NCBI RefSeq assembly: GCF_044324875.1
Contig: NZ_CP172185.1
DNA from: Escherichia coli
GTDB taxonomy: Bacteria; Pseudomonadota; Gammaproteobacteria; Enterobacterales; Enterobacteriaceae
DNA: 64,000 nucleotides
Strand: one strand, 5' to 3'
Part shown: positions 14,599 to 16,421 of the stretch, piece by piece
Layout: the number at the start of each line of letters is the position of its first letter
How positions within the stretch are numbered: position 1 is the first letter of the stretch
Notes under the pieces: generated by a model
The model's database searches: none
What the model saw: the letters and a program-made list of their open reading frames with translations, nothing else
Told to the model about the DNA's origin: nothing
Translations under genes and position numbers: made by a program

Positions 14599-14859
14599 AT
14601 GGAGAACAATATGTCAACCCAGACCGGACATTTTTATACCCCCTCACGCATCCTGCGTATGGCTGAACTTACCCGACTCCTTGGTATATCAAGATCGACC
14701 ATCTACGAAAAAATGAATCCGGCATCAAAATACTACGATGCCACCTTTCCCCGGCCTGTCCGGCTTGGGAGTTCGGCTGTAGGCTGGCGGGCATCTGCCA
14801 TTGATGAGTGGTTAACTTTACATACAACACCAACCAGATCCGTAACTAAGGATAAATAA
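14599..14859 (+). CDS. AlpA-family prophage regulatory protein (small HTH DNA-binding protein)
   Basis: 86-aa ORF; RILRMAELTRLLGISRSTIYEKMNP...YDATFPRPVRLG...VGW...IDEWL parallels AlpA LPAVIQKTGMARATIYDWLNP..YDATFPK...G...VGW...IDEWL. Confidence 0.75.
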   Translation: MENNMSTQTGHFYTPSRILRMAELTRLLGISRSTIYEKMNPASKYYDATFPRPVRLGSSAVGWRASAIDEWLTLHTTPTRSVTKDK

Positions 14860-14874
14860 GGAAAACTGTACGCC

Positions 14875-15339
14875 ATGACAAAATTATCCCCCCCTGAACT
14901 TGACATAACTAAACTGCCTGACAGGTGCCAGGCATTACTTGATGAAATGCATGAAGAAACGGGAATAAGCCGTGAAATACTGCTGTCTGTTATGCTGACG
15001 GTCAAGGCTGCCTCGGTCCAGGATACGCATGAAGTTGAACTTTCTGGAGGGCAGCGTACCAGTCTTCAGATATATATGTGTCTTTCATCAGCATCAGGCA
15101 GTGGAAAAACCTCTGCCTGCGCAAAATTAATCGCCCCTGTTCATGAAACAGAAGAAGAACTACATCAGGCATATATCGACGATAAAAAAAACTATGATCG
15201 CATGATGGAAATGTGGACAACAGATAAAAAAATCCTGGAGCGGAGATATAAAAAGGAAATGGAAAGATCCCCGGAAAATGCTGCTGCTGCACGAGCAGCG
15301 CTTGAAAAGTGTATAGCAAATAAACCCGTACCTCCGTGA
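14875..15339 (+). CDS. N-terminal part of putative P-loop NTPase (GSGKTS motif)
   Basis: 154-aa ORF with LSSASGSGKTSACAKL; stop TGA overlaps the GTG start of the next ORF (gtGTGAatg context at 15336-15342). Confidence 0.5.
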   Translation: MTKLSPPELDITKLPDRCQALLDEMHEETGISREILLSVMLTVKAASVQDTHEVELSGGQRTSLQIYMCLSSASGSGKTSACAKLIAPVHETEEELHQAYIDDKKNYDRMMEMWTTDKKILERRYKKEMERSPENAAAARAALEKCIANKPVPP

Positions 15340-16421
15340 ATGACGCGACACCAGAAGGGATAGCTTTGAAACTCAGCCAGTCACCTTCTCTTCTGTTGCT
15401 GTCTGATGAAGGAGGAACTATTCTGGATAAGCGTTTCGAACGCAAATCGGCGCTGTACAACACATTATGGAGTGGGCAACCAGTCACCGTAGAACGGGCA
15501 TCCAGACCCGGGTTCCGGGTAAAGGATTCCCGTCTCACTATGCTTATACTGACTCAACCGGTAATATTTGATAAGTTTTTTACTCTCACTGGCGACCAGA
15601 TCCGGGGCAATGGCTTTCTGGCCCGGGTGCTATTTTGCGAACCCGGAGCAAATAAAATAATGACGACAGAACCGCATACTGCCACTCCTGTTGTAACGCA
15701 GCAATGTGCAACCTGTTTTCATGAGAAAAGTTTTGGCAGTCAGATCAGAGACTCTCTGAGAGCGTCCCGGGAAAGGCGTGCAAAAGGTGAGCAACGCATC
15801 CGCATGACATTATCACACGCAGCATCCCACGATCTGGAAATCTTTCACGAAGAAAATATGAGTGCTGTCAGGCAGAACCCACGTATGACCACTTTCGAAG
15901 ACATTATCGTCAGGAAAAGAGAACAGGCTGTTCGAATAGCCGCACTTCTGGAGCTGGAGAACAATCCACATGGTACAGTAATAACACGAGAAAGTATCAA
16001 TAGTGCTATTTATCTCGTTGATTTTTATTTTCAGCATCTTATATCCAAACTAGAATCACTTCGGGAAATATCTCCTGCAGAAAAACTGGATAAATGGCTC
16101 AGAGAAAATATCATCCGGGTAAAAGGATACGAATATCAAAAAAGCCATATACTACAATATGGTCCATATGCTCTCAGGAATAAATGTGTTCTTGATGAAG
16201 CACTTGATATACTTGCAGAACAGAAAAAAATCGTAATTGATTATTCAATCGGCCAAAAAATCATTTATATCGGTGACGCGATTACACCTTGTGAATTAGC
16301 AAATGAGGCAAACATCCCGATAATGGAGCGTGGAATGTTTATAGTCTGTTGGGACCATAAGCTGAATAAGTACAGAAATGAAGAACAGACTAAAATATGG
16401 AACATAACTACAAAAAATTAA
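15336..16421 (+). CDS. C-terminal part of putative P-loop NTPase (Walker B-like LLLLSDEGG), possibly YfjI/DUF3987-like
   Basis: 361-aa ORF starting GTG; hhhhDE motif about 100 residues after the GSGKT motif of the upstream ORF, as in one ATPase domain; family name is a guess. Confidence 0.5.
   Translation: MNDATPEGIALKLSQSPSLLLLSDEGGTILDKRFERKSALYNTLWSGQPVTVERASRPGFRVKDSRLTMLILTQPVIFDKFFTLTGDQIRGNGFLARVLFCEPGANKIMTTEPHTATPVVTQQCATCFHEKSFGSQIRDSLRASRERRAKGEQRIRMTLSHAASHDLEIFHEENMSAVRQNPRMTTFEDIIVRKREQAVRIAALLELENNPHGTVITRESINSAIYLVDFYFQHLISKLESLREISPAEKLDKWLRENIIRVKGYEYQKSHILQYGPYALRNKCVLDEALDILAEQKKIVIDYSIGQKIIYIGDAITPCELANEANIPIMERGMFIVCWDHKLNKYRNEEQTKIWNITTKN

Follow-up and report, generated by a model that had tools for sequence, protein, structure and literature searches.

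In CP4-57, a cryptic prophage of E. coli K-12, the regulator AlpA activates intA, and the same element encodes YfjI, a member of the DUF3987 family for which a literature search found no functional study in E. coli. DUF3987 proteins have been linked to the MCM helicases of superfamily 6 (SF6), including by profile-profile comparison (PMC4889955), and are predicted to serve phages and mobile elements as replicative helicases (PMC4889955, PMC5862659). [quoted passage not shown] In the satellites known as PICMI, AlpA is both necessary and sufficient for excision while prim supports replication, and the PICMI model of SatelliteFinder consists of int, alpA and a "prim" gene recognized by PF13148 (DUF3987) or PF19263 (PMC10803314).

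The locus considered here lies within a 64,000-nucleotide stretch of E. coli DNA (contig NZ_CP172185.1 of RefSeq assembly GCF_044324875.1), referred to below as the window, in which alpA is followed by two overlapping open reading frames (ORFs). The analyses detailed below make it very likely that these ORFs are the two halves of one YfjI/DUF3987 MCM-like helicase gene, belonging to a CP4-57-type element, that was broken by a recent 19-bp deletion and is now a pseudogene.

Organization of the Locus

The features of the locus are collected in Table 1. In the mechanical list of ORFs, and in the sequence itself, the AlpA-like frame occupies positions 14599-14859 (+) and would encode 86 aa from 14599. 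The true start is more likely the ATG at 14611, where the energy of the Shine-Dalgarno (SD) duplex is -6.4 kcal/mol versus +0.7 kcal/mol at 14599, and 14611 is also the start given by RefSeq for an identical gene. The identical protein has a recorded match to the Pfam family PF05930 (Phage_AlpA), and in a scan of the PHROG families AlpA matches phrog_66, "excisionase and transcriptional regulator."

The shorter of the two ORFs that follow comprises an N-terminal helical domain, strand beta1, the P-loop and a long helical insertion, while the longer carries Walker B, candidates for sensor-1 (Q234) and the arginine finger (R257), a lid and, at the C terminus, a domain that may be a winged helix. 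The two share the bases GTGA, such that the stop codon TGA of the first occupies 15337-15339 and the GTG of the second 15336-15338. An earlier sequence-only reading of this DNA had described alpA, a 154-aa ORF with the motif GSGKTS and a 361-aa ORF with the motif LLLLSDEGG, the latter two joined by a 4-bp overlap of stop and start, and the list of ORFs and the sequence agree with that description on each point.

Table 1. Features of the alpA-helicase locus and its surroundings, in window coordinates.
Feature	Coordinates	Strand	Evidence
Inovirus Gp2 / YagK-YfjJ family gene	10914..11477	-	RefSeq annotation of identical locus
607-aa orphan gene, divergent from alpA, in a variable "cargo" slot	12687..14510	-	No match in Pfam, PHROGs, PADLOC or NCBIfam databases
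alpA, AlpA-family excisionase/regulator, 82 aa (more likely start)	14611..14859	+	PF05930, phrog_66, SD before 14611
YfjI/DUF3987-family helicase gene, predicted MCM-like (SF6) AAA+, very likely a pseudogene	14875..16421	+	Pfam, phrog_2373, intact allele
N-terminal fragment ORF, 154 aa, ending in Pro154 followed by TGA	14875..15339	+	ORF list, sequence, model
Walker A / P-loop GSGKTS (G75-S80)	15097..15114	+	K78 invariant in 70 homologues
Junction of the 19-bp deletion	15334..15336	+	Pairwise alignment with intact allele
C-terminal fragment ORF, 361 aa, GTG-initiated (former Val161 codon)	15336..16421	+	ORF list, sequence, model
Walker B strand LLLLSDEGG (D184/E185, intact numbering)	15390..15416	+	E185 at least 90% conserved
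ISSso4-like IS21-family insertion (istA, istB), 2639 bp	16629..19267	+	Absent in strain 135
Island tyrosine integrase of P4/IntA type (402 aa)	19289..20497	-	phrog_1 (E 1.8e-52), NCBIfam PRK09692

The 19-bp Deletion

A megablast comparison using positions 14599-16421 as the query against 5,426 complete E. coli genomes revealed the locus in 245 of them, with the best matches covering 1842 bases of the record against 1823 of the query. The gene of E. coli strain 135 consists of one ORF of 1566 nt encoding 521 aa (WP_000164162.1, annotated "DUF3987 domain-containing protein"), to which the window protein is ~100% identical. Pairwise alignment with this intact allele demonstrates that 19 bases, CCGTACAACAGGTTCTCAT, are missing from the window while the flanks are identical; across 7,148 aligned bases (9501-16629), this single 19-nt gap is accompanied by only one mismatch. 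The deletion can be placed between 15334 and 15335 or between 15335 and 15336, a junction ambiguity of 1 nt. Lost with it are the codons for Val155 to Ile160 plus one base, the resulting frame shift is -1, and the shifted frame reads CCT CCG TGA at the junction and hence stops immediately, the GTG "start" of the 361-aa ORF being nothing other than the old Val161 codon. The sequence-only reading had favored one gene broken by a frameshift and had suggested, as a possible cause, the loss of a single G from a ccgg run; the first of these proposals is upheld by the comparisons with intact genomes and homologues, whereas the lesion itself proves to be a different one. As to how the bases were lost, microhomology-mediated slippage was considered and found to be unsupported, given that the CGT repeats at the site lie 18 nt apart and would yield an in-frame loss of 18 nt, while the actual loss is 19 nt with 1 nt of ambiguity.

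One might suppose that the gap is an artefact of sequencing or assembly and that the strain truly possesses an intact gene, a view with which the uniqueness of the deleted allele among the 228 complete genomes having the locus (see below), the lack of any match to the deleted junction in an exact scan of GTDB species-representative genomes, and the virtual identity of the remaining region to intact alleles would all be consistent. Standing against this view is a 4,042-bp Logan contig (run SRR31072984; found in two samples) that is identical to window positions 12615-16656, and that carries the 19-bp deletion as well as the opening bases of the neighboring ISSso4, thereby reproducing the deletion junction together with the junction of the insertion sequence (IS). 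Because this contig, which may share an isolate or read set with the window, was assembled separately and de novo from raw SRA reads, the deletion is probably genuine. Clean losses of 19 nt away from homopolymers are, moreover, not known as typical errors of any sequencing platform, and an artefact is considered very improbable.

Family, Conserved Motifs, and Predicted Fold

When the two halves are joined, the resulting protein matches Pfam DUF3987 (PF13148) over residues 33-389 (E 5.5e-59; model positions 4-358 of 364), and since this match extends across the junction, both ORFs can be assigned to a single domain family. A PF13148 hit is also precomputed for each half separately, so that the adjacency of the two ORFs is not a matter of chance. 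The match covers most of the PF13148 profile; the coding sequence of the window copy, a pseudogene of a family member, is interrupted by the 19-bp deletion and a premature TGA. Consistent with this assignment, the PHROG scan returned phrog_2373, a DNA helicase family (E 6e-41); no hit to NCBIfam or PADLOC was obtained for any of the helicase, AlpA, Gp2 and the 607-aa orphan.

Conservation was assessed in an alignment of 70 full-length homologues. Invariant among these are K78, within Walker A, as well as Q234, G253 and R257, while S74, G75, P151, P154, T165 and E185 are conserved in at least 90%, the last belonging to the SDE motif of Walker B that is visible across the homologues. The family consensus for Walker A in the same alignment reads A-x-SG-x-x-K-S/T. 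Q234 and R257 are candidates for sensor-1 and the arginine finger, respectively, as judged by position only. The deletion falls within a conserved stretch of the form KPxxP-xxxxhh-xDxT.

Compared with PDB chains by sequence, the intact protein produced chance-level matches only, and a fold search was therefore needed to place the protein. The AlphaFold (AF2) model of the intact allele is confident (pLDDT 89.3, pTM 0.85) and presents, in order, strand beta1 (residues 67-71), the P-loop and a helix (78-85), a helical insertion of ~60 residues (87-148), a strand (160-162), a helix (166-175) and the Walker B strand (178-183), with a C-terminal pattern of a helix at 407-455 followed by strands at 459-462 and 469-472. 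In this model the Walker A lysine and the Walker B acidic pair are located on one predicted alpha/beta core, that of an AAA+ domain, which, together with the conservation of K78 and E185, bears out the earlier suggestion that both motifs belong to one ATPase domain. Foldseek comparison of the model with the PDB returned MCM subunits exclusively among the top 25 matches and almost exclusively among the top 50 (best E 3e-6, probability 1.0), and the predicted fold of the intact allele is thus that of an MCM-like (SF6) AAA+ protein. The break is positioned immediately ahead of strand 160-162, with beta1 and the P-loop on one side and beta2 and Walker B on the other, and therefore inside the ATPase core of the model. 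By homology to the characterized DUF3987 helicase AgaPH, a distant relative, the intact protein would be expected to possess helicase activity.

Distribution of the Intact and Split Forms

Complete E. coli genomes matching a 79-nt probe for the intact junction number 228, all at a coverage of at least 80%, and a 60-nt probe for the deleted junction retrieved the same 228 genomes, the matches listed consisting of two pieces 19 nt apart. Accordingly, every one of these 228 genomes has the locus as a single 521-aa DUF3987/YfjI ORF, and none has the split form. Divergent E. coli alleles of ~89% identity, such as those of O104:H4 and O127:H6 strains, are likewise each annotated as one DUF3987 gene. 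At least 1000 contigs encode the exact intact protein, while the 154-aa and 361-aa products occur together on one, the 4,042-bp Logan contig described above. Similarly, among 1.84 billion representatives searched exhaustively with HMMER there were 5,561 homologues, and in 145 of the best 150 of these (mostly 24-35% identical and 470-530 aa in length) residues 150-165 are crossed within one protein. The check proposed in the sequence-only reading, an alignment with YfjI/DUF3987 homologues, thus comes out in favor of a single gene, and the pattern which that reading had named as contrary evidence, homologues consistently encoded as two genes at the same junction, is seen in none of the 228 genomes. 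In other strains, the same helicase gene has been independently disrupted by IS1, by IS903B or by truncation. As judged from these sequence comparisons, the split form is derived and the two ORFs represent one ancestral gene; the split allele is rare and recent.

The possibility that the split gene still works, either as a two-piece ATPase coupled through GTGA or by virtue of an N-terminal fragment with its own function, draws on the four-base overlap of stop and start, a common coupling geometry in bacteria that could permit termination-reinitiation, and on the fact that both fragments are open to their natural ends. Several observations argue against it. Firstly, no SD sequence precedes the GTG at 15336, where the duplex energy is +0.6 kcal/mol versus -6.2 kcal/mol at the gene's own ATG and the similarly favorable value at the start of alpA. 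Secondly, six residues of the conserved segment are gone. Thirdly, the break lies inside the AAA+ alpha/beta core, such that the two halves would have to rebuild one core. Additionally, the distribution described above, in which neither complete E. coli genomes nor the ~89% identical alleles are split at this point, nearly all of the best homologues are single proteins across the site, and the split allele is rare and recent, is not that of an established two-gene arrangement. Because the SD sequence is lacking, conserved residues have been lost and the core must reassemble from two halves, the split gene is probably non-functional, and a working split is regarded as highly unlikely; the coupled two-ORF arrangement that the sequence-only reading had retained as its alternative is not sustained. 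A programmed frameshift was also considered and rejected, as the frame change is conserved in no relative. The reverse history, in which an ancestral pair of genes was fused into the 521-aa form by a 19-bp insertion, has only the formal symmetry of an indel in its favor and retains practically no probability, having already been refuted by homologues of 24-35% identity, K-12 YfjI among them, that are colinear through the site as single proteins, and by residues conserved on both sides of the site and across the segment encoded by the 19 bp.

Decay of the Surrounding Island

The helicase pseudogene and the gene for the integrase, which is convergent with it, are separated by the ISSso4 copy of the window. 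This copy is flanked by a 5-bp target duplication, GCAAA, at 16624-16628 and 19268-19272, and is 100% identical to annotated ISSso4 copies elsewhere. On the far side of alpA, the search for homologues of the 607-aa orphan recovered them from E. coli only, and its AlphaFold model, built from a five-sequence alignment, is unusable (pLDDT 38); elsewhere, the same slot is filled by yfjH, in CP4-57, or by an 866-aa orphan, in relatives. The Gp2/YagK-YfjJ gene may supply the module with a partner resembling a replication initiator. In relatives, DUF3987 is followed by a YagK_YfjJ_C gene, a gene of this kind is also present in CP4-57, as yfjJ, and distant relatives keep the block orphan (-), alpA (+), DUF3987 (+) and YagK_YfjJ (+).

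Homology to K-12 stops just beyond phoH, at window position 22176, and to the left of this point extends a composite island of >22 kb containing metabolic cargo, a raffinose-type operon and IS debris. The module is situated at the end of this island, with a DUF2726 gene and phoH as neighbors. A search for att-like direct repeats bounding a small element yielded only ~100-nt repeats upstream of int and short, chance-like matches. According to RefSeq, a second Gp2 gene and a fragment of an AEP primase (annotated as TOTE primase) are pseudogenes. Taken together, the frameshifted helicase gene, the insertion of ISSso4 and the neighboring pseudogenes indicate that the island is decaying.

Proposed Role of the Module and Consequence of the Deletion

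The genes described above suggest a backbone in which the integrase, the AlpA excisionase/regulator, the helicase and the Gp2/YfjJ-like protein belong to an integrative element of the CP4-57 type, the helicase being its presumed replicative helicase. By analogy with PICMI and CP4-57, AlpA would drive excision, following which replication of the excised circle would fall to the helicase, perhaps aided by the Gp2-like protein. The recent deletion, in removing the codons for Val155-Ile160 and one further base, eliminates the conserved lead-in to strand beta2, and the TGA created at the junction stops translation and cuts off the Walker A half from the half bearing Walker B and the candidate residues for sensor-1 and the arginine finger. 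With no ribosome binding site at the GTG and a frameshift inside the core, the gene is best classified as a pseudogene, and autonomous replication after excision has most likely been lost.

For annotation, it follows that the two ORFs are better recorded as one frameshifted DUF3987/YfjI helicase pseudogene than as two genes, and that the island is best viewed as a replication-defective, decaying element of the CP4-57 type. The gene is an ordinary, strain-specific pseudogene of a known and already annotated family. Even so, the locus provides a small and clean case of the immobilization of an integrative element, combining a deletion in the helicase gene, an IS insertion and neighboring pseudogenes. 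A more far-reaching proposal, considered rather unlikely, is that intact int-alpA-DUF3987(-Gp2) modules of E. coli are minimal PICMI-like satellites or autonomously replicating excisable elements, with an undescribed anti-phage gene in the orphan slot (here the 607-aa gene), the narrower alternative being that the two fragments form a working split helicase; were the proposal true, the window would hold a freshly inactivated copy at the onset of domestication. The parts perhaps worth experiments are the intact alleles of other strains and the orphan gene beside alpA.

Comparison with Known Systems

AgaPH, of a Seonamhaeicola mobile element, is the source of the mechanism proposed here and is likened to the window protein by description (PMC11724360). 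Unlike the window protein, for which a Pfam search of the joined halves gave no match to PriCT, AgaPH possesses an N-terminal PriCT domain and is accompanied by an adjacent AEP primase-polymerase; no intact primase adjoins the helicase gene of the window, where the only nearby AEP is the pseudogene fragment noted above. With respect to MCM proteins, the likeness is one of predicted fold: sequence identity between the model and MCM is only 9-14%, with TM-scores of 0.3-0.4, and the window family differs in its deviant Walker A and in the ~60-residue helical insertion between Walker A and beta2.

The alpha primase-helicase of P4 carries a D5-type SF3 helicase, whereas the ATPase of the window is of the DUF3987/MCM-like type. 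With P4 and the PICIs of Gram-negative bacteria, the locus shares the general layout of an integrase, an AlpA-type regulator and a P-loop replication protein. In the PHROG scan of eight island proteins (ORFs of at least 70 aa), neither the P4 hallmarks psu, delta, sid, epsilon and alpha nor the PICI families for packaging, capsid redirection and morphogenesis were found, the matches being to integrase, excisionase/regulator, DNA helicase and unknown-function families. PICIs join int, alpA and pri-rep to packaging or capsid-redirection genes within ~10-15 kb, and while int and alpA are present here, the surrounding island exceeds 22 kb. The sequence-only reading had seen in alpA and the ATPase a P4/PICI-like satellite backbone; the module is a CP4-57-type backbone that includes the PICMI-like trio of int, alpA and DUF3987, the PHROG scan detected no hallmark genes of P4 or PICIs, and the satellite label for the module is only loosely supported.

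The resemblance to PICMI lies in the co-location of int, alpA and DUF3987 within 6 kb, the three components of the PICMI model, with the prim gene frameshifted. PICMI differ in their fis-adjacent site and minimal size of ~6-7 kb; the window element sits beside a DUF2726 gene and phoH where a large composite island ends, and its helicase is probably inactivated.

The module is of the CP4-57 type. In comparison with that element, the window integrase gene is convergent and lies downstream of the helicase, the Gp2 gene is found on the opposite side, the site of insertion adjoins phoH rather than ssrA, and the window copy of the helicase gene is frameshifted. K-12 YfjI (b2625), of the same Pfam family DUF3987, is a distant paralogue, 25% identical over its full length (E 3e-45) and 469 aa long versus 521 aa for the intact window-type allele, while AlpA of K-12 is 49% identical to AlpA of the window and IntA 34% identical to the window integrase. 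In both elements the helicase gene lies immediately downstream of alpA and a divergent orphan lies upstream of it, and the CP4-57 gene set of intA, yfjH, alpA, yfjI and yfjJ is thereby reproduced in the window.

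Insertions, repeats and cargo of the composite island

Between the helicase pseudogene, the YfjI/DUF3987 gene broken by a deletion, and the tyrosine integrase gene int, an ISSso4-like element occupies an intergenic site. Other E. coli chromosomes and plasmids carry copies with 100% identity to it; strain 135, whose helicase allele is intact, lacks it at the corresponding site. Just upstream of the integrase start lie two direct repeats of ~100 nt each (98-100% identical, spaced by 181-182 nt), of which strain 135 has a single copy. They are overlapped by an Rfam match to RtT RNA (RF00391; 46.3 bits, gathering score 45), and the repeat region may represent a tRNA-fragment-like attachment region of the island. 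A strong Rfam match (191 bits) to the Yersinia sRNA Ysr251, antisense to the phoH 3' end, is probably due to the conserved coding sequence of phoH and not a finding in its own right.

The same composite island carries a raffinose/sucrose-type utilization cluster, comprising genes for a LacI-type regulator, a 708-aa alpha-galactosidase, an MFS transporter (frameshifted in the strain 135 copy) and a GH32 hydrolase. Positions 8222-10721 form a stretch of gene and IS debris. The TOTE-type primase fragment could be a remnant of the helicase's primase partner.

Features of the island and its surroundings
Feature	Position	Strand	Remark
Raffinose/sucrose-type cluster	1852-7841	-	RefSeq annotation of matching strain 135 region
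IS3-family transposase ORFs	8222-9495
Gp2-family pseudogene	about 9822-10097
TOTE conflict-system archaeo-eukaryotic primase (annotated fragment)	about 10440-10721
Palindrome	12609-12644
Orphan gene, 607 aa	12687-14510	-	divergent from alpA
ISSso4-like element (IS21 family)	16629-19267		complete, istA/istB; 5-bp target duplication GCAAA
Direct repeats	20658-20938
RtT RNA match	20716-20852
Ysr251 match	22224-22417	+

An orphan gene beside alpA

The 607-aa orphan gene is AT-rich (GC about 36%), and its product has no match in Pfam, PHROG, PADLOC or NCBIfam; homologues, of at least 71% identity, were found in no species but E. coli, and an AF2 model (pLDDT 38) was unusable. Directly downstream lies a perfect 36-nt palindrome (CTGCTATTGTTGCTAGCC/GGCTAGCAACAATAGCAG), at which Logan contig L002 terminates. 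Since the gene holds the position taken by yfjH in the K-12 cryptic prophage CP4-57, and by an 866-aa orphan in distant relatives, it may constitute accessory or defence cargo.
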